In this document: positions 195 to 43,552 of the stretch, one piece after another
How the letters are laid out: every line of letters begins with the position of its first letter
How positions within the stretch are numbered: position 1 is the first letter of the stretch
Origin: a virus
Taxonomy: Duplodnaviria; Caudoviricetes
DNA: 43,552 nt
Virus record (IMG/VR): IMGVR_UViG_3300037419_000730
Coordinates: 1-43,552 of that record
Reading direction: 5' to 3' (one strand)
Translations under genes and position numbers: made by a program
Notes under the pieces: model-generated
Told to the model about the DNA's origin: nothing
The model's input: the letters and a program-made list of their open reading frames with translations, nothing else
The model's database searches: none

Positions 195-216
195 AGCTAC
201 GCCGAAAGTCACGCCG
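194..216 (+). promoter_or_regulatory. Tandem integrase arm-type sites (AAGCTACGCCG, AAAGTCACGCCG) inside attL
   Basis: The same motif recurs four times near attR (43227-43307). Confidence 0.65.
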
Positions 217-969: not shown

Positions 970-1183
970 CGCCCGGTCCGCTGACGCTGTCCTGCTTGAT
1001 GAAGCGCGACACGAGCGCGGCGATGTTGGTCAGCAGCATCAGCTTCATCGTCGTGTGCGGCGACACGTAGTCGTCCAGCCCGTCGACCAGCGCGGGCGCT
1101 GCACCCAGCGCGTTCGCAATCAGGATCCAGCGCACCGACCAGGCCTTGAGCAGCACCTGCTTGGCGTTGTCGATCAACCTCAT
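956..1183 (-). CDS. Putative holin
   Basis: 75 aa with two hydrophobic segments; overlaps the endolysin start. Confidence 0.7.
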   Translation of the reverse strand: MRLIDNAKQVLLKAWSVRWILIANALGAAPALVDGLDDYVSPHTTMKLMLLTNIAALVSRFIKQDSVSGPGDGKA

Positions 1184-1184
1184 G

Positions 1185-1361
1185 TCAGAACTTGATCCAG
1201 CCCTTGCCGTAGGCGATGCCGATGGCGATCGCGCCGACGACCACCAAGAGCCGATTGACGATCGCCTTGCCCACCTGACGGTAGAACTCGTCGGCCATCT
1301 CGGTTTTCGCGGCTTTCACCACTGCGCGCTCGCGATCCGTCAGCTCGATGTCCTCGCTCAT
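1185..1361 (-). CDS. Small membrane protein of the lysis cassette (holin/antiholin candidate)
   Basis: MSEDIEL start overlaps the Rz stop (ATGA); one C-terminal TM segment. Confidence 0.6.
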   Translation of the reverse strand: MSEDIELTDRERAVVKAAKTEMADEFYRQVGKAIVNRLLVVVGAIAIGIAYGKGWIKF

Positions 1362-1876: not shown

Positions 1877-1903
1877 GCGCAGATGGTGGCGCGCGCCGGC
1901 TGA

Positions 1904-1915
1904 GTTATGGAAACT
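1904..1915 (-). promoter_or_regulatory. Late-promoter box AGTTTCCATAAC (lysis operon)
   Basis: Exact 12-mer, N15, CACCAT, N6, GTG. Confidence 0.8.
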
Positions 1916-1920
1916 CCTGC

Positions 1921-21538: not shown

Positions 21539-21550
21539 GTTATGGAAACT
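21539..21550 (-). promoter_or_regulatory. Late-promoter box (portal operon)
   Basis: AGTTTCCATAAC-N15-TAGCCT-N9-ATG. Confidence 0.85.
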
Positions 21551-27527: not shown

Positions 27528-29050
27528 CAGGCGGCGACTTTCAGCGCCCCACGCGCGGTGTAGTTCGCTCCGACGATGGCTGCAGCCAAGGGCGGGCACA
27601 CACTGTTGCCACACATGCGCACTTGTGCCTTTTTCGTCAGTGGCTTGCCATCCGCACCGCGGTCGATGATGTAGCTCTCAGGAAAGCCTTGGGCCCTGTA
27701 CAGCTCACGCGGGCCGAGCATGCGCATGCCGATTTCGACGATGGCGTAGGGCTCGCCGCGGACCGTGACCAGCCCGAAGCGGTCCAGCGTCGTGACCGTG
27801 TGCAGCGGCTCCTCCAGGCGGGGGTCCTGGTCGGCGCCGTAGTACTTTATGAGGAAGGCGCGCACCTCGCCGTGGTGTTGGCCTTGGGCGCTGATCGTGT
27901 GCAGCGGCTCGCCGGCTGCGCTACCGACGTTCTCGCCGCGCAGCTTCACCATGTGGCTGGCGACAAGGCTGTGGTGGTCCACGCTGGTGACCGTGCCGAT
28001 CGCGTCGCGCAGGTCACTGCCCACCACGCCGCCGTAGTGCTTCGCGAGGAAGGCAGTGACCAGCCCGTGATGGCGGCCCTGCGCGGTGATCGTGCCTAGG
28101 GGCTTCTCCACGCCCGGCACACGCGGATGCTGACCCGGCCTTTCGCCGTGACCCATCGAGATCAACGTCGGCACGACAAGCACGGAGTCGGCCTTTGCAG
28201 TGACGGTCTGGAAGGGTTGCGACACGGCCCGCGCGGGGCTTTGACCCATGCGCCCACCCACCCCGACGATGAAAGGCTCGGCGGCCTGCACCACGTACCG
28301 CATGACGCCCTTGGCGATGCGCCGCAGCGTGGCTTCGGCCAGCGGCCGCGTGCGCTCGAAGATGCTGGGGCACGGCTGGTCCCAGTCGATGCAGTCGGCC
28401 GCCACGGGCCAAGGCTTCAGCTTCCCCGCGCGCACCGGCAGACTGCCCGGCGCGCCGTGCGTCGGTTCAGGCCACACGATCGGCTCGCCGTCGCATCGCG
28501 CCACCAGGAACAGCCGCTTGCGAATGGTGGGCGCCCCGTAGTCGCAGCCGCGCAACTCGCGATGCTCCACCGCATAGCCCATTTGCTCGAGGCTGCGCTT
28601 CCAGCGGCGGAAGGTCCGGCCCTTGCGCTTCGGGCACGGTCGGTTGTCCTCGCCCAGCGGCCCCCACGTCTGGAACTCCTCGACGTTTTCCAGGCAGATG
28701 ACGCGCGGGCGCACCGCGCGCGCCCATTTCACGACAACCCACGCGAGGCTGCGGATCTTCTTGGACACGGGCTTGCCGCCCTTGGCTTTCGAGAAGTGCT
28801 TGCAGTCGGGGCTCGCCCACAGCAGGCCAACGTTGAACCCCGCCACCGCCACGGCCGGGTCCACCTCGAAAACGTCGCAGATGTAGTGCGTCGTCAGGGG
28901 GTGGTTGGCCTGGTGCAGCGCGACAGCCTCGGGGTCGTGGTTGATCGCGATGTCCACGTGCCGGCCGGTCATCTCGATGCCGGTCGATGCCCCTCCACCA
29001 CCCGCGAACAGGTCCACGATGATCTCGTTGTCGTAAGGCGTTCGTGTCAT
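27527..29050 (-). CDS. C5 cytosine DNA methyltransferase
   Basis: DLFAGGGG, SPDC, ENV, RKRLF, QGFP and GNSV motifs. Confidence 0.93.
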   Translation of the reverse strand: MTRTPYDNEIIVDLFAGGGGASTGIEMTGRHVDIAINHDPEAVALHQANHPLTTHYICDVFEVDPAVAVAGFNVGLLWASPDCKHFSKAKGGKPVSKKIRSLAWVVVKWARAVRPRVICLENVEEFQTWGPLGEDNRPCPKRKGRTFRRWKRSLEQMGYAVEHRELRGCDYGAPTIRKRLFLVARCDGEPIVWPEPTHGAPGSLPVRAGKLKPWPVAADCIDWDQPCPSIFERTRPLAEATLRRIAKGVMRYVVQAAEPFIVGVGGRMGQSPARAVSQPFQTVTAKADSVLVVPTLISMGHGERPGQHPRVPGVEKPLGTITAQGRHHGLVTAFLAKHYGGVVGSDLRDAIGTVTSVDHHSLVASHMVKLRGENVGSAAGEPLHTISAQGQHHGEVRAFLIKYYGADQDPRLEEPLHTVTTLDRFGLVTVRGEPYAIVEIGMRMLGPRELYRAQGFPESYIIDRGADGKPLTKKAQVRMCGNSVCPPLAAAIVGANYTARGALKVAA

Positions 29051-29135: not shown

Positions 29136-29441
29136 TCACTGCACGTCACCCCAATCGAGCTTCGGGGCCTGCTGGCGGATGCCCAGCTCCGCGAGCGTCT
29201 TGAGCGCTTCCACGTACTCCGGGTTGAAGCACTGCACCCCGACAGGGACCACTTTCAGACCGCAATGCGCGAGCAGCGCGGTGGCCTGGGAGATCGCACC
29301 GTCCTTCATGCGCGAGACAGTCGATTCGTTCACGCCCATTCCCAACGCCACGGTGCTTTGCCCGGTGGCTGCAAGGGCCTGCAAGACCACTTGCTCGTTC
29401 TTGCGTGCCCTTTCGATGGGCGACAGAGAGACTGTGGACAT
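29136..29441 (-). CDS. cII: CII-like transcriptional regulator
   Basis: ERARKNEQ..GQSTVA..MGVNESTVSRMK resembles lambda CII; follows cro. Confidence 0.8.
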   Translation of the reverse strand: MSTVSLSPIERARKNEQVVLQALAATGQSTVALGMGVNESTVSRMKDGAISQATALLAHCGLKVVPVGVQCFNPEYVEALKTLAELGIRQQAPKLDWGDVQ

Positions 29442-29469
29442 GAACTCTTCCTTTCTTCTTTTCGCTGTT

Positions 29470-29727
29470 TCAGTTCGGGGGCGCGGGCGGCTCGTGCGCC
29501 TGCTCACGCAGCACATCCCAGGGGATGTCGGGGCGCAGCCGCTCGCAGCGCACGCCCGTTTCCCGCTCGATCGCGGGGCAGTTCTCGGCGGGCACACGCT
29601 TGCGGGCCTTCCACATGGAGACGGTGCTCTGGGCCACCCCGATGCGATCGGCAAAGACGGTGACCGTCGGGAATTTGGAGATCGCCTCATCAAGGGCGGT
29701 CATCGGGGAGTCAGGGACGTCAGCCAT
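29470..29727 (-). CDS. cro: Cro-like (YdaS-type) regulator
   Basis: FADRIGVAQSTVSMW..RVP..CPAIERETGVRCERLRPD. Confidence 0.85.
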   Translation of the reverse strand: MADVPDSPMTALDEAISKFPTVTVFADRIGVAQSTVSMWKARKRVPAENCPAIERETGVRCERLRPDIPWDVLREQAHEPPAPPN

Positions 29728-29739
29728 GGTTGAGACTCA

Positions 29740-29811
29740 AGAATATCGCGTTCGTGATTTTCACACAACCACCAACGCGTTACCAGCACATCCTCTAATC
29801 ACATCCGTGAA
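29740..29811. promoter_or_regulatory. OR-like control region: three operators plus divergent promoters
   Basis: ATCGCGTTCGTGAT 29745-58, degenerate site 29768-81, ATCACATCCGTGAA 29798-811; minus-strand TTGTGT-N17-TATTCT before cro. Confidence 0.7.
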
Positions 29812-30616
29812 AACCATTGGGGACCGGATCGCCTGGGCGAGGGGACAACGCAAGCTGACGCAGGCGCAGCTGGCCGCGCGTGTAGGTATTTCGCAGTCAG
29901 CGATCGGCAGCTACGAGGCCGGCCACCGCGGAAAACCCCGCGAGTTGCTCAGCGTCGCCCGAGCGCTCGAAGTGAACCCGATGTGGCTCGAAACGGGCGA
30001 AGGTCGATGGGATGCTCTGCCGCGGTTCTACGAGAACGTCGGGGCCTCCGCAACGAAAGAACACGAGTCCGACTACGACGAACGCCCGATGTTCTCGCGC
30101 GCAAAAGAACCCACCCCGCCGGCCTATCCCTCCATGCAGCCGATCCTCGCCTGGGAACATGAGGAGGACCTCCCCGAGGGCGAGTTCGTCATGGTGCCGC
30201 GGCTGGAGGTGCACCTGTCGGCCGGCGCGGGCATGGGGCGCAACCAGGTCGAGATCGAATTCAACGAGCAGCAGCCCCAGGCGTTCCGCGCCGAGTGGGT
30301 GCGCCAGCAGCACCTGCGGCCCCGCAAGCTCGCGGCCATGACCGCTCGCGGCAACAGCATGGAGCCGACGATCCACGACAGCGACAGCCTGCTGGTCGAC
30401 ACGTCGCAAACCGAGGTGATCGACGGCAAGGTCTACGCCCTGTGGTACGAGGGCGGCGAGCGCGTCAAGCGGCTGTATCGCATGCCCGGTGGCGGATTGC
30501 GCATTCGATCGGACAATGCGTCCGAGCACCCCGAGATCGTGCTGGGCGCCGACTACGCCGGCCATGTGCGCATCATCGGGCGGGTGGTTCATCGAAGTGG
30601 GACAGGAGGGCTCTGA
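29807..30616 (+). CDS. cI: CI-like repressor (XRE HTH plus S24 peptidase), probably leaderless GTG start
   Basis: LTQAQLAARVGISQSAIGSYE HTH; SAG cleavage site, GNSMEP and VKRL. Confidence 0.92.
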   Translation: MKTIGDRIAWARGQRKLTQAQLAARVGISQSAIGSYEAGHRGKPRELLSVARALEVNPMWLETGEGRWDALPRFYENVGASATKEHESDYDERPMFSRAKEPTPPAYPSMQPILAWEHEEDLPEGEFVMVPRLEVHLSAGAGMGRNQVEIEFNEQQPQAFRAEWVRQQHLRPRKLAAMTARGNSMEPTIHDSDSLLVDTSQTEVIDGKVYALWYEGGERVKRLYRMPGGGLRIRSDNASEHPEIVLGADYAGHVRIIGRVVHRSGTGGL

Positions 30617-31164: not shown

Positions 31165-31224
31165 ATCGCGAACGCGATCAATTTATCGCGTTCGTATTGA
31201 CGCGCTAATCACATTCGCGATAAT
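31165..31224 (+). promoter_or_regulatory. OL/PL-like region: three operators overlapping TTGACG-N16-GATAAT
   Basis: ATCGCGAACGCGAT 31165-78, ATCGCGTTCGTATT 31185-98, ATCACATTCGCGAT 31208-21. Confidence 0.78.
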
Positions 31225-31268
31225 CGAGCCTCAACAGCGCACGGTGCGCTGCACTGCTGAGGACCTCG

Positions 31269-31754
31269 ATGACCACCCTGACCCTTTCGCTCGATCTGGC
31301 CGACACGTCCGGCATCGAGCTCGCCATCCACAACCTGACCCTGCTGCTGGGGAAAGGCCCCCAGTCGAGTGCGCCGGCCCGCGAGGCTGTGTCTGGCCAG
31401 CGTACTGTGCCGGCTGGCGCTGCGCGTGGCGTGACGGCCGGCGCGAGCACCCCCGCTGCTCAGTCTGCCGCGGCCCAGTCGCAAGCCTCGACTGCTGCGA
31501 CGGGTGAGCAGGGAAACGACACGCCGGCTGGCCAGCCTGCAGCTGCCTCGACTGCTTCTTCGACGAAGCTCGACGCCGCAGCCGCGCCCACCTTCGATGA
31601 GGTGAAGAAGGCGTTCCTGGCGCTGAGCACGAAGCCCAACGGCCGCGCGCTGTGCGAGGGCGTGCTCAAGCCCTTCGCGCTGGCCAAGCTGACCGAGGCC
31701 AAGGTCGAGCAGTACGGCGCGCTGAAGGCGGCCATCGACAAGGCGGCGACGTGA
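31269..31754 (+). CDS. Hypothetical early protein
   Basis: GAGGA RBS; first gene after PL. Confidence 0.75.
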   Translation: MTTLTLSLDLADTSGIELAIHNLTLLLGKGPQSSAPAREAVSGQRTVPAGAARGVTAGASTPAAQSAAAQSQASTAATGEQGNDTPAGQPAAASTASSTKLDAAAAPTFDEVKKAFLALSTKPNGRALCEGVLKPFALAKLTEAKVEQYGALKAAIDKAAT

Positions 31755-31867
31755 TCTGGGCCGCGCTGTTTGCGGTGGTCGTCGTGGTCGGGCTCTATAT
31801 CCTGCTCGACGCCATCGCCGACCGCGCCCTGGTCAACGACTTCGACGAGGAAGGCCATGCCCAGTAA
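31751..31867 (+). CDS. Small membrane peptide (38 aa)
   Basis: GTGA coupling; hydrophobic IWAALFAVVVVVGLYILL. Confidence 0.5.
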   Translation: MIWAALFAVVVVVGLYILLDAIADRALVNDFDEEGHAQ

Positions 31868-33161
31868 GCACGCCGTCTTCAGCCCCTCGGGCTTCAAGGC
31901 CCTGATGCTGTGCCCGGCCAAGCCCGCCATGGAGCGCGGCCTGCCGGACACGAGCAGCGACTACGCCGACGAGGGTACGGCGGCGCACTTCCTGGCGTCG
32001 TACTGCCTCGAGCTGGGTGGCGAGCCGCCCGACTACATCGGGCAAGAAATCTTCGTGGGCACCGAAGGCGAAACAACCTTCGACCCGCTCCCGTTGAATC
32101 GTTGCCGCGTGTTCACCGTCGACACCGACATGGCCGACGCCGTGCAGACGTACATCGACACGGTGCGCGACTACCAGGGCCCCGATGGCGAGCTGCTCGT
32201 CGAGCAGGCCCTGCCCATCGGCCACATTACCGGCGAGGAAGACGCCGAGGGCACCGGCGACACCGTGATCCTGCGCGGCGACGAGATCATCGTCAGCGAC
32301 CTGAAATTCGGCCGCGGCGTCGAGGTGTCTGCCGTCGACAACCCGCAGTTGATGTTGTACGGCCTGGGCGCGCTGGAGAAGTTCGGCCTGATGGGCGACT
32401 TCAAGCGCGTGCGCATGGTGATCTCGCAGCCGCGCATCACCGCAGCGCCCAGTGAGTTCGTGATGGACGTGGCCACGCTCGTCGAGTGGGGCAAGGAAAT
32501 CGCGATGCCGGCCGCACACCGCGCCGCGGCGATCATGACCGGCAATCTTGTCGAAGAAGGGTTCGAACCGTACGAGCGGGCTACACCCCACCCCGACGCC
32601 TGCCGCTTCTGCAAAGCCAAAGGCACCTGCCCCGCGCTCGCCGCCAGCGTCGAATCCGCGCTGCAGGCCGAGTTCACCGACCTGACGACGAAGGACGCGA
32701 CGGCGCAATTGCAGATCGTCGAGCAGCTGGTGCAGCGCGTCACGCCCGACAACCTGGGCGCGAAGATGGACTCGGTCGAACTGGTGGAGATGTGGTGCAA
32801 GGCCATTCGCGCGCGCTGCGAATCGGTGCTGCTCGCCGGCGGCACCGTGGCGGGCTACAAACTCGTGGCCGGCAAGCGAGGCAACCGCGCATGGGCCGAC
32901 GAGGCCGAGGCCGAGAAGACGCTCAAGTCGTTCCGCTTCAAGAAGGAGCAGATGTACGACCTGAAGCTGATCTCGCCCACCTCGGCCGAGAAGCTGCTCA
33001 AGGCCGCCCCCAAGCGCTGGGCCAAGGTCACGCCGCTGATCAAGCAGGGCGAAGGCAAACCCAGCGTCGCGCCCGTATCCGACACCCGGCCCGCCCTCGA
33101 GGTGAAGCCGATCGAGTCGGAGTTCACCGCCATCGCCGACACCGCGGAGGACCTGGTGTGA
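31857..33161 (+). CDS. DUF2800 Cas4-like PD-(D/E)xK exonuclease
   Basis: HAVFSPS..C, EGTAAH, GTGD..DLKFG, NPQLMLY and CRFCKAKGTC. Confidence 0.88.
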   Translation: MPSKHAVFSPSGFKALMLCPAKPAMERGLPDTSSDYADEGTAAHFLASYCLELGGEPPDYIGQEIFVGTEGETTFDPLPLNRCRVFTVDTDMADAVQTYIDTVRDYQGPDGELLVEQALPIGHITGEEDAEGTGDTVILRGDEIIVSDLKFGRGVEVSAVDNPQLMLYGLGALEKFGLMGDFKRVRMVISQPRITAAPSEFVMDVATLVEWGKEIAMPAAHRAAAIMTGNLVEEGFEPYERATPHPDACRFCKAKGTCPALAASVESALQAEFTDLTTKDATAQLQIVEQLVQRVTPDNLGAKMDSVELVEMWCKAIRARCESVLLAGGTVAGYKLVAGKRGNRAWADEAEAEKTLKSFRFKKEQMYDLKLISPTSAEKLLKAAPKRWAKVTPLIKQGEGKPSVAPVSDTRPALEVKPIESEFTAIADTAEDLV

Positions 33162-33364
33162 ACGCCCCCGAGCGTCACCTGCACATCGACGAGCGCCCGC
33201 CGTTCGTCGCCCACCCCTGCAACCAGCTCCCGCCTGCCGCGCGCGACCTGCTCGTGATCGCGTCGCAGGTGCCCGACCCGCACGAGCGCCGCCTGGCGAT
33301 CGACCACGCCATCGACCGCGTGAAGGCGCGCTTCCCCGAATTTTTCCGCCCAACCCAGGAGTAA
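33158..33364 (+). CDS. Hypothetical protein
   Basis: GGAGG RBS, GTGA coupling, fills the gap. Confidence 0.6.
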   Translation: MNAPERHLHIDERPPFVAHPCNQLPPAARDLLVIASQVPDPHERRLAIDHAIDRVKARFPEFFRPTQE

Positions 33365-33367
33365 TCC

Positions 33368-33928
33368 ATGCCTATTGCCAAGATCGAAAACGTTCGCATC
33401 TCGTTCCCCAACCTGTTCGAAGCCAAGGCCATCAACGGCGAGGGCGAGCCGCGGTTCTCCTCCGCGTTCGTCATCGTGCCCGGCAGCGCCGCCAATGCCG
33501 CGCTCGCCGCCGCGATGGAGGTTGTGGCCAAGGAGAAGTGGGGCGCCAAGGCCCACGGCATCCTGGCCGAACTGAAGGCCAAGGGCCGCGTGGCGTTCAA
33601 GGAAGCGCCGCTGTCCAAGGACGGCGAGGTGTACGACGGCTTCGAAGGCATGTTCTCGCTCAACGCGAGCAGCCCCACCCGCGTGGCCGTGATCGACCGC
33701 GACACCACGCCGCTCACGTCCGCCGACGGCAAGCCCTACGGCGGCTGCTACGTCGATGCGAGTGTGGACATCTGGGCCCAGGACAACAGTTGGGGCAAGC
33801 GCATCAACGCCAAGCTGCGCTGGGTGCAGTTCCGCGGCGACGGCGACGCCTTCTCGGGCGGCGCGCCGGTCTCGCAGGACGAGTTTCAGGCGATCAGCGA
33901 AGGTGCGGCGGCCGAGGGCCTGGTGTGA
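33368..33928 (+). CDS. DUF2815 single-stranded DNA-binding protein
   Basis: VRISFPNLF, YGGCYV and VQFRGDGDAFSGG; acidic tail. Confidence 0.88.
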   Translation: MPIAKIENVRISFPNLFEAKAINGEGEPRFSSAFVIVPGSAANAALAAAMEVVAKEKWGAKAHGILAELKAKGRVAFKEAPLSKDGEVYDGFEGMFSLNASSPTRVAVIDRDTTPLTSADGKPYGGCYVDASVDIWAQDNSWGKRINAKLRWVQFRGDGDAFSGGAPVSQDEFQAISEGAAAEGLV

Positions 33929-34125
33929 GCGCCATCGACGATCTGCGCGCGGCCGTGCTCGCGGGCGAGGCCAATGACCTCGCCTCGCGCGCTGCCATCG
34001 AGCTGGCGGACCAGATCGCCGCGCTAAACGCGGCGGTCTTCCCGCCAGCCCCGCCGGCCACCGACCCGGCCGTCATCGCGGCCCAGCCCATCACTGTCGA
34101 CAAGCCGCAGCTGGTGGGGAACTGA
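33925..34125 (+). CDS. Hypothetical protein
   Basis: GTGA coupling, fills the gap. Confidence 0.55.
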   Translation: MSAIDDLRAAVLAGEANDLASRAAIELADQIAALNAAVFPPAPPATDPAVIAAQPITVDKPQLVGN

Positions 34126-34126
34126 C

Positions 34127-34321
34127 ATGGCGCTGATCGTGATCACCGTGCAGGACGTGGACGGCGAAGCCCAGGTGAGCGTGGCCACCGAGCCGGGCTT
34201 GCCCGCCCAACCGACACCCGATTTCCTGCTGCCGCCCGCACAGGCGGCCGCTCTCACCATGCTGCGCGCCCTCAGCGGTGAGATCAAGGAAGACCGAGGG
34301 CTGATTCAACTTCTGTCCTGA
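34127..34321 (+). CDS. Hypothetical protein
   Basis: In the operon, 64 aa. Confidence 0.6.
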   Translation: MALIVITVQDVDGEAQVSVATEPGLPAQPTPDFLLPPAQAAALTMLRALSGEIKEDRGLIQLLS

Positions 34322-34372
34322 TGCCGTCTAGCCCGCGTTCTTTCCGGACTTTTCTTCCGCGGGTTGGGCTTT

Positions 34373-34399
34373 CCTCGGGCTTCGGCCCGGGGTTTTCTT
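34373..34399 (+). terminator. Intrinsic terminator upstream of the polymerase gene
   Basis: CCTCGGGC-TTCG-GCCCGGGG-TTTTCTT (UUCG tetraloop plus U tract). Confidence 0.7.
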
Positions 34400-34475
34400 G
34401 AAGGCACTGCGTCGCGAGGTTCGTTCTGCCCTCTTCCCCTCTGCGAACACCGCGCGTAGTGCCTTCACGAAAACC

Positions 34476-36536
34476 ATGAAACTCTGGATCGACACCGAAA
34501 CCTTCAGCGAGACGCCGATCAAGCACGGCACGTACCGCTACGTCGCCGACTGCGAACTGATGGTCGTCTCGTACGCGCTGGATGACGGGCCGGTGCAGGT
34601 CGAAGACCTGACCTGCTGCTCGCCATCGGCGGCATTGCAGCTGGCCTTGTTCGAAGCCGACGAGGTCTGGGCGCACAACGCCATGTTCGACCGCGGTGTG
34701 ATCGACAAGCACTTCACCGGCATCGCCCCGCCGCTCACGAGATGGCGCTGCAGCATGGTGCGCGCGCTGTCGCACTCGCTGCCGGGCGGGCTGGACAAGC
34801 TTTGCGAGATCCTGCAGGTGCCCGTCGACCAGGCCAAGCACAAGGCCGGCAAGGAGCTGGTGCGGCTGTTCTGCATGCCCCGCCCGGCCAACGCCAAGCT
34901 GCGCCGCGCCACCCGCGAGACGCACCCCGCCGAGTGGGCGCAATTCCTCTCCTACGCCGGCAACGACATCGAGGCGATGCGCGCGATCGACAAGCGCATG
35001 CCGACGTGGAACTACTCTGGCTTCGAACTGGATCTGTGGCACCTGGACCAGCGCATCAATGACCGCGGCTTCGCGGTGGACGTGCAGTTGGCCGACGCCG
35101 CGATCCGCGCGATCGACAGCGAGCAGACGCGCCTGCGCGGCGCGGCCTGGGCGCACAGCGACGGCGCGCTGGACTCGGCCACCCAGCGCGACGCCGTGCT
35201 CGAGCACGTCCTGGCCGAATACAACATCGTGTTGCCCGACCTGCGCGGCAGCACGCTGGAGCGGCGCCTCGCCGACCCGGACATCCCCGAAGGCCTGAAG
35301 GAGCTGCTGCGCATCCGCCTGCAGGCGTCCACCACCAGCACGTCGAAGTACCGCGCGCTGATCAACGGACACGTCGGCGGGCGCATGCGCGGCACCGTGC
35401 AGTTCAACGGCGCCGGACGCACCGGCCGCCGCGCCGGGCGCACCTTCCAGCCGCAGAACCTGCCGCGCCCGTCCGCAGGCTTCGACGAGGCCGTGCAGGA
35501 AGAGGCCGTCGGCGCGATCAAGGCCGACGTGGCGGACCTGATCACCGACGACGTGATGACGCTCACGGCCGACTGCCTGCGCGGCGTGATCGTCGCCCCG
35601 CCCGGTCGCAAGCTGGTCGTGGCCGACCTGTCCAACATCGAAGGGCGCATGCTCGCGTGGCTGGCCGGCGAGGAGTGGAAGCTGCAGGCGTTCCGCGACT
35701 TCGACGCAGGGCACGGCGAAGACCTGTACAAGGTCGCGTTCGCCCGCGCGTTCAAGATCATCGCGGCCGACGTGGGCAAGCAGCAGCGCCAGATCGGCAA
35801 GGTCATGGAGCTGATGCTCGGATACGAGGGCGGCGTCGGCGCGTTTCTCACGGGCGCGGCCACGTACAAGTTCGACGTGGAGGAGCTGGGCGTCACCGCC
35901 TACGACACCATCCCGGACTGGGCGCTGCGCGAGGCCGGCGAGTTCTACGACTGGTGCGTCAAGGAAAAGCGCCCCACCTTCGGCCTGTCGCGCACCGCGT
36001 TCGTGGTATGCGATTCCCTCAAGCGCATGTGGCGCGCCGCGCACCCCAACGTCGTGTCGTTGTGGCGCGAGCTGCAGGACACCTGCATCGCCGCGGTGGA
36101 GTCGCCCGGCACCACCCTGACCTGCCGCCGCTTCAAGATCCGACGCGACGGCGCCTGGCTGCGCGTGGGCCTGCCGTGCGGCCGGCGCGCGCTGTGCTAC
36201 CCCCAGCCCAAGGTGCAGAACGGAAAGCTGTCGTACATGGGCGTGAACCAGTACACGAAGCAGTGGAGCCGCATCGGCACCTACGGCGGCAAGCTCGCCG
36301 AGAACGTCACCCAGGCCGCCGCGCGCGACGTGCTCGCCGACGGCGAGATGGCCGCCGACGCCGCCGGTTACGGCGAGGTGCTGCCGGTGCACGACGAGAT
36401 CTTGGCCGAGACGCCCGACACCACCGAATTCAGCGCCCAAGGGCTGGCGCATCTCATGTGCTCGAACTCGCCCTGGGCCGACGGCCTGCCGCTGGCTGCA
36501 GCGGGGTTCGAGACGTATCGCTACCGGAAGGATTGA
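34476..36536 (+). CDS. Family A DNA polymerase (APSE-like)
   Basis: Exo IDTET and AHNAMFD; RTGR..QPQNLPR, ADLSNIEGR, RQIGKVMEL and VHDE. Confidence 0.95.
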   Translation: MKLWIDTETFSETPIKHGTYRYVADCELMVVSYALDDGPVQVEDLTCCSPSAALQLALFEADEVWAHNAMFDRGVIDKHFTGIAPPLTRWRCSMVRALSHSLPGGLDKLCEILQVPVDQAKHKAGKELVRLFCMPRPANAKLRRATRETHPAEWAQFLSYAGNDIEAMRAIDKRMPTWNYSGFELDLWHLDQRINDRGFAVDVQLADAAIRAIDSEQTRLRGAAWAHSDGALDSATQRDAVLEHVLAEYNIVLPDLRGSTLERRLADPDIPEGLKELLRIRLQASTTSTSKYRALINGHVGGRMRGTVQFNGAGRTGRRAGRTFQPQNLPRPSAGFDEAVQEEAVGAIKADVADLITDDVMTLTADCLRGVIVAPPGRKLVVADLSNIEGRMLAWLAGEEWKLQAFRDFDAGHGEDLYKVAFARAFKIIAADVGKQQRQIGKVMELMLGYEGGVGAFLTGAATYKFDVEELGVTAYDTIPDWALREAGEFYDWCVKEKRPTFGLSRTAFVVCDSLKRMWRAAHPNVVSLWRELQDTCIAAVESPGTTLTCRRFKIRRDGAWLRVGLPCGRRALCYPQPKVQNGKLSYMGVNQYTKQWSRIGTYGGKLAENVTQAAARDVLADGEMAADAAGYGEVLPVHDEILAETPDTTEFSAQGLAHLMCSNSPWADGLPLAAAGFETYRYRKD

Positions 36537-36547
36537 GGGGACTCACC

Positions 36548-36940
36548 ATGTCATACACACCACGCGAAGGATCGCTGCCCGCGCGCGCGATCGAACACCT
36601 GCGGACCCTCGATGAGGACGCCGAGCTCAGTACGAGCGCACTGTGCAGGGTGCTGGGCACCAGCAGCTCGCTGCTCATCACCAGCATGGGCGCGGCGATC
36701 CAGCACGGCGCCATGCGCGTGCGCAAAGAGGACCGCACGTCCTTCTGGAGCTTGGGCGACGGCACCCCGCCCGGCGACGAACAGGAAGGCGAGGACACCG
36801 AGCCCGAATTCAACGCGGCGCTGTGGACCGATGGCGATCTGGTCATCTACGGCGCGCAGGCCAACACGGACGGCAGCGTGACCCTGAGCCGCGAGCAGGT
36901 GGCCCATGTCAGGCAGCTGATCTCCGGCAGCCCATTCTGA
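36548..36940 (+). CDS. Hypothetical protein (possible winged-helix N-terminus)
   Basis: GAGGG RBS; fills the gap. Confidence 0.65.
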   Translation: MSYTPREGSLPARAIEHLRTLDEDAELSTSALCRVLGTSSSLLITSMGAAIQHGAMRVRKEDRTSFWSLGDGTPPGDEQEGEDTEPEFNAALWTDGDLVIYGAQANTDGSVTLSREQVAHVRQLISGSPF

Positions 36941-36950
36941 GGAGCACTAC

Positions 36951-37229
36951 ATGAACCTGACTCTGGAAGAACGCGAGCGCCGCGCGTACATCGAAGGGCA
37001 CACCGAAGAAGCGGAGCTGCTGGCCGCCACGATCGACTGCGAGTTCGATTCGCTCAACGAGATGCGCCACGAACGCGACATGGCGCAGGAAGAGAACGAT
37101 CGACTCGCGCGCGAGAACGACACGCTCACGACGGAAGTCGAGGGACTTGAGGAAAAGGTTCACACGCTCACGACGGAAGTCAATGGCCTGAAGGACCAGA
37201 TCCACGAGGCGGGGATCGACCTGCTGTGA
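36951..37229 (+). CDS. Acidic coiled-coil protein
   Basis: GAGGAG RBS; heptad repeats. Confidence 0.7.
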   Translation: MNLTLEERERRAYIEGHTEEAELLAATIDCEFDSLNEMRHERDMAQEENDRLARENDTLTTEVEGLEEKVHTLTTEVNGLKDQIHEAGIDLL

Positions 37230-37432
37230 ACTGGCTCCGCAAACTTTTCCGCCGCGTGCCGGCCAGCGAAGTGCTCGCCGAACAGCTGTTCGAAGCCGAA
37301 CGCCTGCACGTCGAGCACCAGGCAGCTGCCGAAGTGCACGCGGCGCTGGCGGCCGTCTACCGCATGCGCATCACGCGCATTCGGGGTGCACAGGCGAACG
37401 TGCTCGAGGTTCTGCGAGGTGGCAAGGCATGA
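37226..37432 (+). CDS. Hypothetical protein
   Basis: GTGA coupling. Confidence 0.65.
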   Translation: MNWLRKLFRRVPASEVLAEQLFEAERLHVEHQAAAEVHAALAAVYRMRITRIRGAQANVLEVLRGGKA

Positions 37433-37614
37433 AGTGCCCCCGCTGTGGCGAGCAGTTGCGCGTGCTTCAGACACGCACGGACGGCATTGAGCTTCGACGC
37501 ACACGTCGGTGCGCGCAGGGGCATGTCTTCATGACGGTTGAAGCGCCGTTGCGAGAGCGCCCCGCTGGCAACCGTCGCGGGCAGAGGTGGACGGGGGTAC
37601 AGCGCCGTGCGTGA
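37429..37614 (+). CDS. Zinc-ribbon protein (NrdR N-terminus-like)
   Basis: MKCPRCG...RRTRRCAQGHVFMTVE. Confidence 0.65.
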   Translation: MKCPRCGEQLRVLQTRTDGIELRRTRRCAQGHVFMTVEAPLRERPAGNRRGQRWTGVQRRA

Positions 37615-37912
37615 ATCCGACATCGAGAAGTACCTGGTCAAGCGCGTGAAGGCGCTGGGCGGCGAGGTGCGCAAGGTGCAGTGGATCGGGCGGCGCGGCG
37701 CGCCGGATCGGCTGGTGATGCTCCCCGCCACGTGGGTGCTCTGCGACGACAACGCGTACCGCCAGCACCGGCGCACAGCGTGGGTCGAGCTGAAGGCCCC
37801 TGGCGAAGCGCCGGATCCGCATCAGGCGCGCGAACACAGGCGCATGCGCGAGATGGGTGAACGTGTCGTTGTGATCGACAGCGTCGAGGGCGTGGAAAGG
37901 TTGGTGGCATGA
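37607..37912 (+). CDS. VRR-NUC nuclease
   Basis: RESDIE..GAPDRL..WVELKAPG..Q motif. Confidence 0.85.
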   Translation: MRESDIEKYLVKRVKALGGEVRKVQWIGRRGAPDRLVMLPATWVLCDDNAYRQHRRTAWVELKAPGEAPDPHQAREHRRMREMGERVVVIDSVEGVERLVA

Positions 37913-38523
37913 CAGCCGAAGCCTACCCCCTGCAGTGGCCCGCCGGTCGTGCGCGCACCGAGCGCTGGCGCCGCGAGCGCGCGAAGTTCGACGTGACCTT
38001 CGCACGTGCCCGAGACAACATCGTGCAGGAGATTGGGCGACTGGCCGGCCGCTACCCGGACCCACAGGTCGTCATTAGCACGAACATCGCTCTTCGCCGC
38101 GACGGCCTGCCACTTGCTGGCCAGCGCCAGCCGGACGATCCCGGCGTGGCCGTGTACTTCACGTACAAGAAGCGGCAGATGTCTTTTGCATGCGACCGCT
38201 GGGAAAAGATCGAGCACAACATGCAGGCGATCGCGAAGACGATCGAAGCATTGCGCGGCATCGCGCGCTGGGGCACCGGCGACATGCTCGAGGCCGCGTT
38301 CACTGGCTTTACAGCTCTGCCCCCGCCCTCAGCGTCGGACCTTGCCAGCACGAAGAAGCACTGGCGCGACGTGTTCGGGACGGCCGCGCGCACGCGCGCT
38401 GACGTGCAGGAAGTCTATCGACGCCTCGCGGCTGCGTTTCATCCTGATCGCGGCGGAGACCCCGTCAAGATGGCCGAGCTGAACGCCGCGCGCGACGAAG
38501 CGATGAGGGAACTGCTCGCATGA
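37909..38523 (+). CDS. Phage protein with C-terminal J domain
   Basis: YPLQWP N-terminus; FHPDRGG..MAELNAA J-domain HPD motif. Confidence 0.8.
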   Translation: MTAEAYPLQWPAGRARTERWRRERAKFDVTFARARDNIVQEIGRLAGRYPDPQVVISTNIALRRDGLPLAGQRQPDDPGVAVYFTYKKRQMSFACDRWEKIEHNMQAIAKTIEALRGIARWGTGDMLEAAFTGFTALPPPSASDLASTKKHWRDVFGTAARTRADVQEVYRRLAAAFHPDRGGDPVKMAELNAARDEAMRELLA

Positions 38524-39896
38524 CCCGCCGCGACTACACCCCCCGCGTCTACCAGTCCATGATCGTCGAGCACGTCCACAACGTCGAACGCAGCGCGGTG
38601 TGGGCCGGCATGGGCATGGGCAAAACCATCAGCACGCTCACCGCGCTGGACAGCCTGTACCTGGCCGGCGAGGACCACCCCACGCTCGTGCTCGCGCCGC
38701 TGCGCGTGGCGCGCACGACCTGGCCCGAGGAGGCGCGCAAGTGGTCGCACCTGCGGCACGTGTCGGTCATGCCCATCGTGGGCGACGAGAAGGAGCGGCG
38801 CGCGGCGTTGCGCTACGACGCATCGGTCTACACAACGAATTACGAGAACCTGCCCTGGCTCGTCGAGTATTACGGCGACCGCTGGCCGTTTCGAACGCTG
38901 GTGCCCGACGAGTCCACCAAGCTGAAGTCCTTCCGCCTGCGCCAGGGTGGCAAGCGCGCCGCGGCGCTGGCCAAAGTCGCGCACCCGAAGATCAAGCGCG
39001 TGATCGAGCTGACCGGCACGCCCAGCCCCAACGGGCTGCAGGACCTGTGGGGCCAGATCTGGTTCCTCGATGGCGGCGTGCGGCTGGGCCGCACCTTCGA
39101 GGCGTTCAAGCAGCGCTGGTTCCAGAAGTCGCACGACGGCTACGGCCTCACGCCCCTGCCCCACGCCCAGGCCGAGATCCAAGAGAAGCTTAGAGACATC
39201 TGCATCACGGTCGATCCGGCCGACTGGTTCGACCTGCAGGAGCCGATCGTCACGCCGGTGTATGTGGACCTGCCCCCGCGTGCGCGGGCGCTGTACAAGG
39301 ACATGGAGAGGCAGATGTTCATGGAGCTGGAAGGCCACGACGTGGAGGCCTTCAACGCGGCGGCGCGCACGATCAAGTGCCTGCAGCTGGCCAACGGCGC
39401 GGCCTACGTCGACGACGCGGGCAACTGGAAGGAAGTGCACGACGAGAAGATCCTTGCGCTGGAGGACATCGTCGAGGAGGCGGCCGGCGCGCCGGTGCTG
39501 GTGGCCTACCACTTCAAGAGCGACCTGATGCGGCTGCAAAAGGCCTTCCCGCAGGGCCGTGTGCTCGATGCCGATCCGGCCACGATCAAGGAGTGGAACG
39601 AGGGCAAGATTCCCGTGCTCTTCGCCCACCCGGCCAGCGCCGGCCACGGCCTGAACCTGCAGGACGGCGGCAACATCCTGGTGTATTTCGGCCACTGGTG
39701 GAACCTCGAGGAACGCATGCAGATCCTCGAGCGTATCGGCCCCGTGCGCCAGCTGCAGGCGGGCTACAACCGCCCCACCTTCATCTACAACATCATCGCC
39801 CGCGACACCGTGGACGACAACGTCATCGAGCGCGTCGATTCGAAGCGCGAAGTTCAGGAAATTCTTCTGGAAGCGATGAAACGGAGGAGCGCATGA
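38520..39896 (+). CDS. SNF2-like helicase
   Basis: GMGMGKT, DES, LTGTP, GHGLNLQ.GG. Confidence 0.9.
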   Translation: MTRRDYTPRVYQSMIVEHVHNVERSAVWAGMGMGKTISTLTALDSLYLAGEDHPTLVLAPLRVARTTWPEEARKWSHLRHVSVMPIVGDEKERRAALRYDASVYTTNYENLPWLVEYYGDRWPFRTLVPDESTKLKSFRLRQGGKRAAALAKVAHPKIKRVIELTGTPSPNGLQDLWGQIWFLDGGVRLGRTFEAFKQRWFQKSHDGYGLTPLPHAQAEIQEKLRDICITVDPADWFDLQEPIVTPVYVDLPPRARALYKDMERQMFMELEGHDVEAFNAAARTIKCLQLANGAAYVDDAGNWKEVHDEKILALEDIVEEAAGAPVLVAYHFKSDLMRLQKAFPQGRVLDADPATIKEWNEGKIPVLFAHPASAGHGLNLQDGGNILVYFGHWWNLEERMQILERIGPVRQLQAGYNRPTFIYNIIARDTVDDNVIERVDSKREVQEILLEAMKRRSA

Positions 39897-40111
39897 GCGA
39901 AGCCGTCAACCACCCCGCGCACTACGGCGGCGCCGACAACACCTACGAAGCGATCAAGGTGATCGAGGCGTGGGGCCTGGGCTTCTGCCTGGGGAACACC
40001 GTCAAGTACATCAGCCGCGCCGGCAAGAAGGACGACATCGTTCAGGACCTGAAGAAGGCGCGCTGGTATCTGGATCGCGAGATCGCCAACCTGGAGAAGC
40101 GGAATGTCTGA
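39893..40111 (+). CDS. DUF3310 family protein
   Basis: VNHPAHY..GNTVKYISRAGKK..DLKKARWYL. Confidence 0.85.
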   Translation: MSEAVNHPAHYGGADNTYEAIKVIEAWGLGFCLGNTVKYISRAGKKDDIVQDLKKARWYLDREIANLEKRNV

Positions 40112-40829
40112 AGCACTTCGCGTGCTGGACCACGGCCACGTCCGGCTGGTCGACCACATGGGCAGCGACCTGTCCATCGTCCGCAGCGCCCGCGTCTCGT
40201 ACGACGCCGAGTGGCGCACCGGTGAAGACGAAGGCAAGGACGCGAAGCTGATCGCGTACCTCGTCAAGAACCGCCATACGTCGCCTTTCGAAGCGGTCTC
40301 CTTCACGTTCGACGTGAAGGCGCCGATCTTCGTGCTGCGCCAATGGCACCGGCACCGCACCTGGTCTTACAACGAGGTGTCGGCCCGCTACGCCGAGCTG
40401 CCCGAAGAGTTCTACATCCCCGACCTCGAGCAGATCACCACGCAGTCGGCCAGCAACAAGCAGATGCGCACGAACGAGCGCCATCCCAGCGCTGAGGACT
40501 GGCGCAACTGCATGCGCGGGCACAACGAAGTGACCTTCGACCTCTACCGGGCGATGCTGCGCGACGGCGTGCCGCGTGAGCTCGCGCGCTCGGTGTTGCC
40601 GGTTGCCACCTACAGCCGCATGTTCGCGACGGTGGACCTGCACAACCTGATGCACTTCCTGAAGCTGCGACTGCACGAGCACGCTCAATACGAGATCCGC
40701 GTGTACGCGGCTGCCATGCTGAAGCTGGTCGAGCCGATCGTGCCGGTGGCGGCGGCGGCGTTTCGTGAGCACTACCTCACCGATGGCGTGAACGCGCCTT
40801 CCAACGATCAACCCGGAGACACCAAATGA
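40104..40829 (+). CDS. thyX: Flavin-dependent thymidylate synthase
   Basis: SARVSY, HTSPFE and RHRTWSYNEVSARY (RHRx7S) motifs. Confidence 0.95.
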   Translation: MSEALRVLDHGHVRLVDHMGSDLSIVRSARVSYDAEWRTGEDEGKDAKLIAYLVKNRHTSPFEAVSFTFDVKAPIFVLRQWHRHRTWSYNEVSARYAELPEEFYIPDLEQITTQSASNKQMRTNERHPSAEDWRNCMRGHNEVTFDLYRAMLRDGVPRELARSVLPVATYSRMFATVDLHNLMHFLKLRLHEHAQYEIRVYAAAMLKLVEPIVPVAAAAFREHYLTDGVNAPSNDQPGDTK

Positions 40830-41509
40830 CGACGATCACCGCGCCGCACCCGGCGCTTCAATCTGCCTCGTTCGTGATCGCCTTCGGCGGCGAGGGCGCT
40901 GCCGCTTACATGGTGCACGGCGGCTGGGAGGCGATGCTCGATAGCTTCGCGCGAAACACCATCGGCCACAGCGCCACCGACATGAGCCAGCCGACGCACC
41001 CGAACGCCGACGAATGGGCGAGCTGGCTGGAGGACTTCAACGACCTGGACGAATGGGCAAGCGACGAGAGCAACCTACCCTACAGCTTCGACAGCGAAGT
41101 CGGCGAGATCTCGACCGTGACGATCTACCGGCTGTCCGACGCCACGAAGGCGGCGCAGGACGTTCTCGCCGAGCGACAGCGACAGATCGAGGCTGAGGGA
41201 TGGCATGCCGATCACGACGACGAGCACGCAAACGGTGAAATGGCAATGGCCGCTGCGTGCTATGCGGCGCACTCGTCCGTGTGGCAGGCAATCGAGCACA
41301 CGACCGTGCGCAACAAGCCCGGCTTGGCTCAACGCCTCGTTTCAGCGCAGGAGTTCGTGCATCGGATGTGGCCGTGGGGCACGGCATGGTGGAAGCCGAA
41401 AGACGACCGCCGCAACCTCGTCCGCGCCGGCGCATTGATCCTCGCGGAGATTGAACGCCTCGACCGCGCGGCGGGTAGTGCTGGCGTGCAGGGAGGCGTT
41501 CATGGTTGA
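40826..41509 (+). CDS. Phage accessory protein (C-terminal DVLAERQRQ..HDDEH domain)
   Basis: C-terminal domain common in phage ead/Ea22-type accessory regions. Confidence 0.7.
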   Translation: MTTITAPHPALQSASFVIAFGGEGAAAYMVHGGWEAMLDSFARNTIGHSATDMSQPTHPNADEWASWLEDFNDLDEWASDESNLPYSFDSEVGEISTVTIYRLSDATKAAQDVLAERQRQIEAEGWHADHDDEHANGEMAMAAACYAAHSSVWQAIEHTTVRNKPGLAQRLVSAQEFVHRMWPWGTAWWKPKDDRRNLVRAGALILAEIERLDRAAGSAGVQGGVHG

Positions 41510-41705
41510 GCGCGACTCCGACGAGTTGGAATACGCGCAACGCTACGCAGCATTGCGCGCACGCGGATACCCGATGAGTGAAGCGGCTCGCAAGGCGCAC
41601 CGCGAAATGGAGGCTGACGCTTCCAACCTTACCGCTGCTCGCATCGCCCTCAATGCTGCACGCAATGCTGGCGTGGGAGAAGAAGTACCGACGAGGAAGG
41701 AATGA
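41502..41705 (+). CDS. Hypothetical protein
   Basis: GGAGG RBS before ATG 41502. Confidence 0.55.
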   Translation: MVERDSDELEYAQRYAALRARGYPMSEAARKAHREMEADASNLTAARIALNAARNAGVGEEVPTRKE

Positions 41706-41956
41706 AGCTGTACTACGACAAGTCGGAGTTGCAGGATGCGACCACGCTGTCCGAAAGCACCATCGACGAGGAAATCCGGCAGGGCCGGTTTCCGAAGCCT
41801 CGGCAGCTGGCCGGCCGCCGCGTCGGCTACCTGGTCGAGGAAGTGATCGAATGGGCACGTACGCGCCCGATTTCCGAGCAGCTCCCGCCGCCGAACACCG
41901 GTGCTAAGAAGCCGCGGCGCGCGCGAGTTCTTCAAGACGCGCATCAAGGCGCGTGA
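41702..41956 (+). CDS. AlpA-like excisionase/recombination directionality factor
   Basis: LSESTI..IRQGRFPKPRQL..RRVGY..EEVIEW; convergent with the integrase. Confidence 0.85.
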   Translation: MKLYYDKSELQDATTLSESTIDEEIRQGRFPKPRQLAGRRVGYLVEEVIEWARTRPISEQLPPPNTGAKKPRRARVLQDAHQGA

Positions 41957-43208
41957 GCCAGGTCAGGCGTTCGGCGTCGTACTGGTGCCGGTTATAGACG
42001 CCCATGACGCCCGGCAGCATGTGCCCCAGCACCGATTCGGCAACCTCGGCAGGGCAGCCCATGATCGCGAGTTGCGTGCGCACCGTGCGGCGCAGGTCGT
42101 GCGGCGACCAGTGCGTCACCGGCAAACGCGGGCGCGGCTGAGCCCCCTTCTCTTTCGTCTTGCAGTAGGGCTGATGGTGATACACGCCGCCCTGCACGAC
42201 TTTCTGCTCCATGGGAATCTCCGAGCCATCCTCGGCGGTGACGACCGACGGGAACAGGTAGCGGCTCGCGACCGCTGAGCGCCGCATCACGATCGCCCTG
42301 GCCCGGCCGATGAGCGGCACGCGCAGATCCGTCGCACCCTCGCGCCGCGCGTTCTTCGTCTTCTCCTTCGGAATCGTCCACCAAAGCCCCGTCGACTCTT
42401 CGGTGATTTCGCCTTTTTCCATCGCCATGATCTCGGCGCCGCGGGTGCCAGTCCACAGGTACAGCGCCACGACGTCCTGCAGCAGGCGCGAGAAGTTCGG
42501 CAGCCAGTTGACCAGCACGCCGAGCTCCTTTTCGTTGAGCACGCGCTTTGTCGAACCCATGTGCTTGCCGTCGATCTTCTTGCCTTTCGTGCGCGGCATC
42601 TTTCCACGCCACACCTGGCGCCACCAGTTCGGCGTGTTCTCGGGCAGCTTGTCGGCGTCCAGGCCGTAGTCGTACGCAGCCCCCATTTCCTGCCGCACGC
42701 TCGCCATGAGCACAGGCCGATCCGACAGCCCCTGCAGCAGGCTGTATGCCTCACTGCGCAGCAGCAGCGCGGCCGGGCGCTCTGCGATCGGCGCTGTGTG
42801 GGCCTCGAGCAGGCGCCGCACCTCCGCGCGCCCCTTGGGCTTGCGGTGCAGGTCAATGTGGCCGGCGAGGTAATCCTGCACCAGGTCGGCCACGCTGTAG
42901 GGCTTCTCTTTCTCAGCCACAGCAGCCGCGCGCGCCCGCTGCCGAGCCGCACGCTTTTGCAGCTGCAGGTCGACGCCGTTGTCACGTTCCGTGCGGCGCT
43001 TCTCCCATTCGACGGCGGCGGCCGGGTAGGACATGGATGGCCACTCGCCCAGCTTCAGCTGGCGCATGCCGCCGTCCACCGGGCTCTTGTAGCGATAAAT
43101 CCAGCTGCGCCGCGTGTCGGTCGCGACGAGCCGCAGGCCCGGGTGCTCCTGTAAAGTGATGTGCTCGCCAGCCGGTAACAGCTTGGCGGCGCGTGCGTCG
43201 AATGACAT
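41904..43208 (-). CDS. int: Tyrosine integrase (P4-like, with arm-binding N-domain)
   Basis: GLRL..SWIYRY N-domain; TGTR, KTKN, HDLRRT, LGH and YNR catalytic residues. Confidence 0.95.
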   Translation of the reverse strand: MSFDARAAKLLPAGEHITLQEHPGLRLVATDTRRSWIYRYKSPVDGGMRQLKLGEWPSMSYPAAAVEWEKRRTERDNGVDLQLQKRAARQRARAAAVAEKEKPYSVADLVQDYLAGHIDLHRKPKGRAEVRRLLEAHTAPIAERPAALLLRSEAYSLLQGLSDRPVLMASVRQEMGAAYDYGLDADKLPENTPNWWRQVWRGKMPRTKGKKIDGKHMGSTKRVLNEKELGVLVNWLPNFSRLLQDVVALYLWTGTRGAEIMAMEKGEITEESTGLWWTIPKEKTKNARREGATDLRVPLIGRARAIVMRRSAVASRYLFPSVVTAEDGSEIPMEQKVVQGGVYHHQPYCKTKEKGAQPRPRLPVTHWSPHDLRRTVRTQLAIMGCPAEVAESVLGHMLPGVMGVYNRHQYDAERLTWLTRLDARLEELARAAAS

Positions 43209-43222
43209 GGCCTGCTCCTGAG

Positions 43223-43310
43223 CGCAGCGTAGCTTTTTGACAGTGCCGGCGTAACTTTCAGGTCGGGCCGGCGTCAGTTTTTCGAGGGACCACAGAAAAG
43301 CTACGCTGCG
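43223..43310. promoter_or_regulatory. Integrase arm-site cluster bounded by a perfect 15-bp inverted repeat
   Basis: CGCAGCGTAGCTTTT 43223-37 / AAAAGCTACGCTGCG 43296-310, with related copies at 43247-58 and 43269-80. Confidence 0.7.
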
Positions 43311-43386
43311 ACGACAAGTGTAGCCGGGCCTAAACGGGTGTTGTCGGGCGACTGAAGCGGGGCAGGAAAATCAAAAATCTCAGAGG

Positions 43387-43430
43387 AATCAACGAGTTGC
43401 AGCTGGACACCTCGGAAAATCAATGGCTTG
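43387..43430 (+). promoter_or_regulatory. Two IHF consensus sites (WATCAANNNNTTR)
   Basis: AATCAACGAGTTG 43387-99 and AATCAATGGCTTG 43418-30, between the arm sites and the core. Confidence 0.75.
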
Positions 43431-43552
43431 CGAAACTCGCGAGGCCGGGCGTTACGCCGATGATGCAGCAATACCTGCAGGTGAAAGCGCAGCATCCGGA
43501 TACGCTCGTCTTCTACCGCATGGGCGATTTCTACGAGCTGTTCTTCAGTGAC
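43397..43552 (+). CDS. mutS: DNA mismatch repair protein MutS, N-terminal part (runs off the window); start is phage-derived TTG 43397 or ATG 43460
   Basis: Translates [33 protein letters not shown], the canonical MutS domain I with the GDFYE mismatch-binding motif. Confidence 0.95.
43454..43469 (+). repeat. attR core ACGCCGATGATGCAGC
   Basis: Identical to 141..156; about 250 bp from the integrase start. Confidence 0.95.

Follow-up and report, generated by a model that had tools for sequence, protein, structure and literature searches.

The right attachment arm of a temperate phage integrated in the mutS gene of its host carries an in-frame ribosome site, a TTG start codon and a leader that, on comparative sequence evidence, very probably keep mutS working while the same DNA is used as an attachment site. 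The window, i.e., the whole stretch of DNA analysed, is a single virus record of 43,552 nucleotides, with 140 nt of host DNA to the left and 83 nt to the right of a 16-bp core. This core is the longest direct repeat between the two window ends (141-156 = 43454-43469; the next longest is 10 bp) and encodes TPMMQ of MutS at both ends, and the insertion thus lies within the HTPMMQQ codons. Judged by its gene content, the element between the core copies is a complete temperate prophage of podovirus type, approximately 43 kb in size: profile matches include terminase, portal, capsid, tail, holin, endolysin, spanin, cI-, cro- and cII-like regulators, an AlpA-type excisionase and an integrase in which the catalytic residues R-K-H-R-H-Y are all in place. 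The host is probably a Burkholderiales soil bacterium, as suggested by the neighbours of the integrase in sequence comparison; a DNA search of 401 genomes around Ramlibacter monticola with window positions 1-156 yielded nothing beyond short, weak matches. The features of the element between the two junctions are as follows.

193-216, plus strand: putative left-arm arm-type sites of the integrase, CTACGC at 197-202 and the variant TCACGC at 209-214
484-2002, minus strand: lysis cassette of endolysin, holin and Rz-like spanin, by family matches
1921-24930, minus strand: virion module of T7/BPP-1-like podovirus type (terminases, portal, capsid, tail tubes, internal virion proteins), by family matches
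29136-30616, no single strand: switch genes, cII-like, cro-like and cI-like (HTH and S24 peptidase), by family matches
31197-41956, plus strand: promoter-like TTGACG-16-GATAAT (from sequence) and rightward early genes (exonuclease, SSB, PolA, helicase, ThyX; family matches) up to the excisionase
41702-41956, plus strand: AlpA-type excisionase or recombination directionality factor (PF05930, phrog_66)
41904-43208, minus strand: tyrosine integrase of 434 aa with arm-binding domain and strong Shine-Dalgarno (SD) sequence, reading away from mutS
43227-43307, no single strand: three putative right-arm arm-type sites, GCGTAG at 43227, GCGTAA at 43249 and inverted CTACGC at 43301
43316-43345, plus strand: conserved AAGTGTAG and degenerate repeats, a putative excisionase-binding array; the control arms described below have both too

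Several other open reading frames were observed. A 74-aa ORF (253-477, plus strand) lies just inside attL, convergent with the endolysin gene, in a moron-like position; neither Pfam nor PHROG gave a match for it, and it does not resemble the gene beside the att site of phage Aval. A 420-aa ORF without a family match (21549-22811, minus strand) is located between the terminase and portal genes, and the element also encodes a C5 DNA methyltransferase (27527-29050, minus strand) and, at 40104-40829 (plus strand), the ThyX thymidylate synthase. In the host DNA, a minus-strand ATG at 10-8 may begin a gene divergent from mutS.

The two junctions between phage and host mutS contain the following features.

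81-86, plus strand: GATAAT, a hexamer that may be the -10 element of the promoter of native mutS; ATG 96 follows after 9 nt
96-194, plus strand: stranded native mutS start, with a 15-codon leader, TPMMQ and then phage-derived codons to TGA 192-194
141-156, plus strand: attL copy of the 16-bp common core (codons TPMMQ), a direct repeat and the arm overlap in attP contig L169
43383-43387, plus strand: GAGGA, Shine-Dalgarno-like sequence of the replacement start, SD energy -5.8, with the TTG 9 nt downstream
43387-43399, plus strand: distal IHF consensus site, an exact match whose last triplet is the TTG start
43397-43453, plus strand: replacement mutS start, TTG and 19-codon phage-derived leader
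43418-43430, plus strand: proximal IHF consensus site within the new coding region, an exact match, found with at most two mismatches in 72 of 95 related arms
43454-43469, plus strand: attR copy of the 16-bp core
43454-43552, plus strand: domain I of the host mutS body, truncated where the window stops, by Pfam MutS_I and solved MutS chains

At attR, the mutS frame is open from 43334, and TTG 43397 is the sole ATG, GTG or TTG in that frame ahead of the core. TTG is a weak start codon. The sequence-only reading had proposed that a stranded native start (ATG 96, stop at 192-194) is replaced by a GAGGA-TTG start that exchanges a 19-aa leader for the native 15-aa leader; the attL part was confirmed base for base, and all attR coordinates are correct. 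Only 99 nt of mutS body (43454-43552) are covered by the window. The frame downstream of the attR core matches Pfam MutS_I (E 4e-13). Against solved MutS chains, the similarity sets in at TPMM or slightly ahead of it, in most cases with the T. One solved native MutS carries V at the position where the phage leader replaces H, and comparison of attL sequences showed that native mutS leaders vary freely in sequence and length.

The native ATG 96 has no SD sequence (SD energy -1.7), and the start looks to be of leaderless type, on the evidence of its upstream hexamer. The native mutS of locus L301 has the identical GATAAT at equal spacing, Ramlibacter monticola has GAAAAT at equal spacing, and the same GATAAT hexamer occurs in the phage early promoter-like site. 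In several Burkholderiales, the ATG of native mutS lacks an SD sequence and is preceded, at 7-9 nt, by a -10-like hexamer (window 81-98; L301; L268-L271; G004:C1:1089370-1089420), a pattern that suggests leaderless mutS mRNA in several members of this order. A consensus promoter scan of attL found no promoter for the rescued gene.

To our sample of related arms, a search with the integrase contributed 261 loci, which together with the window comprised 110 attR-mutS loci, 28 attP-like loci, 52 others and 72 with too short an upstream sequence. From these, 95 representative mutS-type arms, less than 80% alike over 90 nt, were compared; L063 and L157 were excluded from this count as irregular, although L063 was later found to be an ordinary arm. 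The frame of MutS is open for at least 15 codons in 94 of the 95 arms, against 54 ± 4.8 (maximum 66) in 100 dinucleotide shuffles, and an in-frame ATG, GTG or TTG lies 10-33 codons upstream of the core in 92, against 31 ± 4.5 (maximum 46); the arms share ancestry and so do not represent 95 independent events. The other two frames contain 15 and 4 starts, and none of the 95 arms has an in-frame stop nearer than 12 codons to the core. A start with an SD energy of -3.4 or lower is present in only 27 of 95 arms (shuffles 9.7 ± 3.2), so that initiation may be weak in many relatives. The 14 control arms belong to relatives whose target is the 3' end of a different gene, which we take to be GTP cyclohydrolase II. 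In each reading frame, 10 of the 14 have at least 15 open codons; the set is too small for a strong test of frame.

Alignment of related attR arms, a check proposed in the sequence-only reading, thus found the open frame and in-frame start kept in 92 of 95 arms. The proposed conservation of the ribosome site and TTG held only in part: AGGA is retained in five of the six closest arms, the window's included, and the closest relatives keep an SD-like purine run and the TTG, but the identity of the start codon (ATG, GTG or TTG) and its position (10-33 codons) vary widely. Phage Aval has ATG at the position of the window's TTG, and locus L003, whose integrase is 83% identical, has TAG immediately 5' of the same TTG. 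A clear distal IHF site is present in 38 arms. Its last triplet is a start in 11 of them, 9 of which are without another start nearer the core; of the 27 with a non-start triplet, 24 possess an alternative start nearer the core (Fisher p 6e-5). Arms losing the TTG start nearly always compensate with another start.

A different account of these arms is that the TTG leader is a by-product of the IHF sites and that MutS restarts at ATGs inside the core. Two such ATGs are present (43460 and 43463), a GAGG lies approximately 15 nt upstream (energy -4.1, wide window), and the leader shows little sequence conservation. If translation began in the core, however, neither a frame open for at least 12 codons in all 95 arms nor starts enriched far above shuffles would be expected, nor would the compensation for TTG loss or the excess of substitutions at third codon positions of the leader (65, vs 41 and 38 at the other two; p 0.01). 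We consider a restart in the core extremely improbable. The third-position bias is far stronger in the MutS body (120 vs 21 and 8), and from a bias that is present but much below that of the body, the phage leader is probably translated and loosely constrained. The replacement start itself looks real and selected, the open frame and in-frame start of this phage-supplied N-terminus appearing conserved over the related arms.

The IHF consensus, which we take to be WATCAANNNNTTR, has exactly two matches on both strands of the whole 43.5-kb window, and both are in the right arm, where the TTG as the last triplet of one site and the placement of the other within the new coding region had been described exactly. 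The suggestion that this overlap serves as a control feature did not survive comparison. The start coincides with the distal IHF triplet in at most 11 of the 38 arms with a clear distal site, and the same layout is found in arms that need no start: the control arms share the arm-type sites, their spacing, the putative excisionase sites and the IHF-like motifs, and the distance between the last arm-type site and the core is 152-154 nt in 82 of 90 mutS arms, as it is in 13 of 14 control arms. On these alignments, the overlap is recombination anatomy and not conserved control. IHF binds DNA, and therefore could affect transcription but not the use of the TTG on mRNA.

The preferred reading, in which the attR arm supplies a working start, would run as follows. 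A complete temperate phage has inserted into the TPMMQ codons of host mutS, and its right arm brings a ribosome site, the TTG at 43397, presumably used in vivo, and the 19-codon leader, from which MutS would be made in the lysogen. The integrase would bind the arm-type sites, IHF and the AlpA-type excisionase would shape the intasome, and precise excision would restore native mutS. The arm would thereby have a double role, with its geometry set by recombination and selection retaining some in-frame start within it. The likely purpose would be to exploit one of the most conserved proteobacterial DNA motifs without making the host, and the phage's own prophage DNA with it, a mutator.

Restoration of the native gene by excision, as had been predicted, is consistent with a scar-free attP and an in-frame empty site. 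One assembled contig, the independent viral contig L169, crosses attP and is 100% identical to the window over 3980 and 3255 nt with a 16-bp overlap, which points to excision to a circle as in the mutS HTPMMQQ elements. Logan contigs of 4 of the 11 listed public runs were examined. In run X11, one contig spans attL with 0 differences from the window, and another, of 124 nt, runs in frame from the native leader into the mutS body. Relative to the leader of the lysogen, the empty-site contigs have a single mismatch, which the X11 attL contig lacks; they are therefore probably derived from a sister strain without the prophage, and do not themselves prove excision. On one side or both, the X4 and X7 empty-site contigs and the X4 attR contig end 14 nt beyond the core, and they were left out of the bridging set. 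The DNA of the window may have originated from runs X1 and X4. Among relatives, 39 of 80 genome loci were submitted to an attL search, and the pattern of core, 33-52 nt and YTACGC matched in 32 of these 39 genomes; 30 loci were returned, from which off-target L266, L273, L286 and L290 were dropped, while L267 is without a clear mutS start. The one genome checked by hand among the 7 without an attL match is in register. In 26 attL/attR pairs and in R. monticola, the core copies differ by substitutions only, although the pattern demanded an in-register core, to which a frameshifted attL is invisible, and rare scarred cases are possible.

These data bear on whether the element could act as an on/off switch of the Vibrio 12B01 or SpyCIM1 type, in which the mismatch-repair gene is broken or untranscribed in one state. 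In V. splendidus/Vibrio 12B01, a 2-bp excision scar creates a hypermutator (PMC5296598), and the target motif is the same as in the window. The window element has no sign of such a scar or of an excision frameshift in mutS, with identical cores, an exact attP and an in-frame attB. Nor does integration appear to inactivate the gene: the frame is rebuilt at attR, and among 59 lysogen loci with enough sequence, MutS frames of at least 800 codons are present in 57. The other two, L036 and L073, both MAGs, have the mutS frame broken far inside the gene, away from the junction, likely by assembly error. We therefore give an on/off switch almost no credence. The phage-controlled mutator switch put forward by the sequence-only reading is likewise not supported, as mutS is in frame in both states, the 12B01-type scar is absent and the IHF overlap is not conserved.

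A quantitative effect is a separate matter. Lysogeny might move mutS from a leaderless-type start to an SD-TTG start fed by a weak promoter inside the arm-type sites, so that occupancy by integrase, excisionase and IHF would tune MutS, and MutS level and mutation rate would differ between lysogen and cured cell or follow integrase occupancy; this would be a lytic-competent, reversible mutation-rate dial across a large Burkholderiales phage family. The native side has a -10-like hexamer and no SD sequence, whereas the arm has an SD sequence and no sigma70 match: a consensus scan of 43100-43552 found no sigma70-type promoter for the rescued gene, in agreement with the initial reading. The TANNNT hexamers of the right arm (43230, 43252 and 43302) occur only inside arm-type sites. 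From the weak TTG behind an SD sequence, the position of these hexamers and the KplE1 precedent, MutS level could differ between the lysogen and the cured cell. KplE1 has an intS promoter that overlaps its att arm and is subject to repression by integrase and the directionality factor (Panis et al. 2010, PMC2951348), and Chu et al. 2017 suggested a promoter swap (PMC5296598). Against such tuning, the 83 mutS arms scanned for TANNNT and stricter hexamers have no conserved -10 position except inside the last arm-type site; the hexamer inside that site, found in 36 of 83 mutS arms and listed for none of 13 control arms, was not counted as evidence because the latter are a related Burkholderia set. 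The arm sites, spacing and IHF-like motifs recur in the 14 control arms that need no start, and a start codon and position that vary so widely are unlike a tuned switch. A full lysis cassette would also make the phage a poor reversible switch, since excision normally accompanies induction and would usually end in lysis; active lysogeny is defined as excision without lysis (PMC13492144). Overall, a dial of this kind appears unlikely.

The window element is an extra example of a class published in 2017 and not a new class. Chu et al. (mBio 8:e02045-16, PMC5296598) described elements in the mutS HTPMMQQ motif in hundreds of Beta- and Gammaproteobacteria, with element-supplied starts, many listed elements of 30-47 kb and named prophage members (B. 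multivorans CF2). Clean excision was sequenced in three non-Vibrio strains, B. multivorans CF2, P. putida F1 and E. coli 536, and the hypothesis was advanced that excision swaps mutS between two regulatory regions (PMC5296598). The window element has the same target codons, an orphaned native start at the far end of the element, prophage character and an integrase adjoining mutS, with 246 bp, within the 300 bp typical of these elements, between the integrase start (43208) and the core (43454); by sequence and conservation, it also appears to supply an in-frame translation start (PMC5296598). Three strains of Table S2, Methyloversatilis universalis FAM5, Massilia alkalitolerans DSM 17462 and Herminiimonas sp. 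CN, match the window integrase at 51-55% identity and place it among the relatives of that class (PMC5296598). The emphasis of the sequence-only reading on a full virion-encoding phage was right in that the gene set is complete but not in its novelty, as Chu et al. (PMC5296598) already list prophages, and of 17 relatives whose two ends lie on one contig, 15 measure 38-45 kb. What distinguishes the window is its T7/BPP-1-like podovirus cargo and a TTG start that overlaps an IHF consensus; in the text of Chu et al. (PMC5296598) as consulted here, no analysis of the ribosome site, start codon or IHF sites of the arm was found. In literature searches that covered few subscription journals, HTPMMQQ together with mutS was found only in Chu et al. 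2017, and no paper was found that tests mutation rate in a clean-excising lysogen.

SpyCIM1 of Streptococcus pyogenes is also a phage-related element at a mismatch-repair locus, described as a non-lytic remnant located between mutS and mutL whose integrated form blocks mutL transcription (PMC5296598, PMC13492144); unlike SpyCIM1, the window element is inserted within mutS, provides the gene with a new start and encodes a lysis cassette. The recombination module resembles KplE1 and P4-like modules with AlpA-type directionality factors, in which int lies beside the att arm and reads away from the core, arm-type and IHF sites are present and the excisionase is transcribed separately (PMC2951348). 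KplE1, in contrast, targets the 3' end of a tRNA gene and supplies no protein start, and promoter overlap with the arm, demonstrated there, would only be presumed for the window element (PMC2951348).

Two isolated phages, Acidovorax phage Aval (OP131589) and Ralstonia phage RS-AB1 (PP316168), carry the arm, as does the prophage of Ramlibacter monticola KACC 19175. Their integrases are 53-64% identical to that of the window, and their arms run in an open frame, with a start, as far as the TPMM codons; the R. monticola arm has the identical GAGGA-9 nt-TTG layout. The virion modules differ from the window's, with an HK97-type head and tape measure in Aval and R. monticola and P2-like genes in RS-AB1. 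The R. monticola element, of 40 kb, encodes terminase, portal, capsid and tape measure, and among 16 genes tested only int and alpA are in common with the window. A text-search listing of the Aval paper (PMC11619371) contains no mention of mutS.

Related integrases were also observed at other targets. In Paraburkholderia, relatives of approximately 53-55% identity (L060, L061, L062, L066, L154 and L159) immediately precede the ATG of a gene, at an arm of approximately 190-230 nt from the int start, and an SD-like run is found upstream; the gene start looks to us like that of a DeoR-type regulator, and L158 sits before what we take to be a LysR-like gene. Replacement of a 5' end would thus possibly occur at other targets. 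The same integrase clade is found at the 3' end of another gene in 22 loci (L006, L012-L019, L025, L038 and others), presumably GTP cyclohydrolase II as for phage KS9, and Rhodoferax loci L065, L067, L068 and L074 have a 3'-end target that is presumably a Maf-like gene; arm geometry is unchanged in both groups. The arms of L157 and L128 are much shorter or rearranged between int and core (the L157 core is 134 nt from int). Upstream of L282, the attL of L020 in a Noviherbaspirillum MAG with an element of 62.5 kb, the sequence resembles another phage arm with two IHF-like sites, representing either a tandem insertion or an old phage arm kept as the host mutS start. Two attL-like junctions 2.2 kb apart in one genome (G008:C11:31514 and 33700) are perhaps a small tandem remnant at mutS.

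To the class of mutS elements, the present analysis adds comparative evidence of selection on the replacement start. The cultured, non-pathogenic soil strain R. monticola KACC 19175 shares the arm, and could be used to address the question raised by Chu et al. of whether clean-excising mutS elements alter mutation rate. If MutS level does differ between lysogen and cured cell, the evolvability of hosts would be under the control of a common prophage family.
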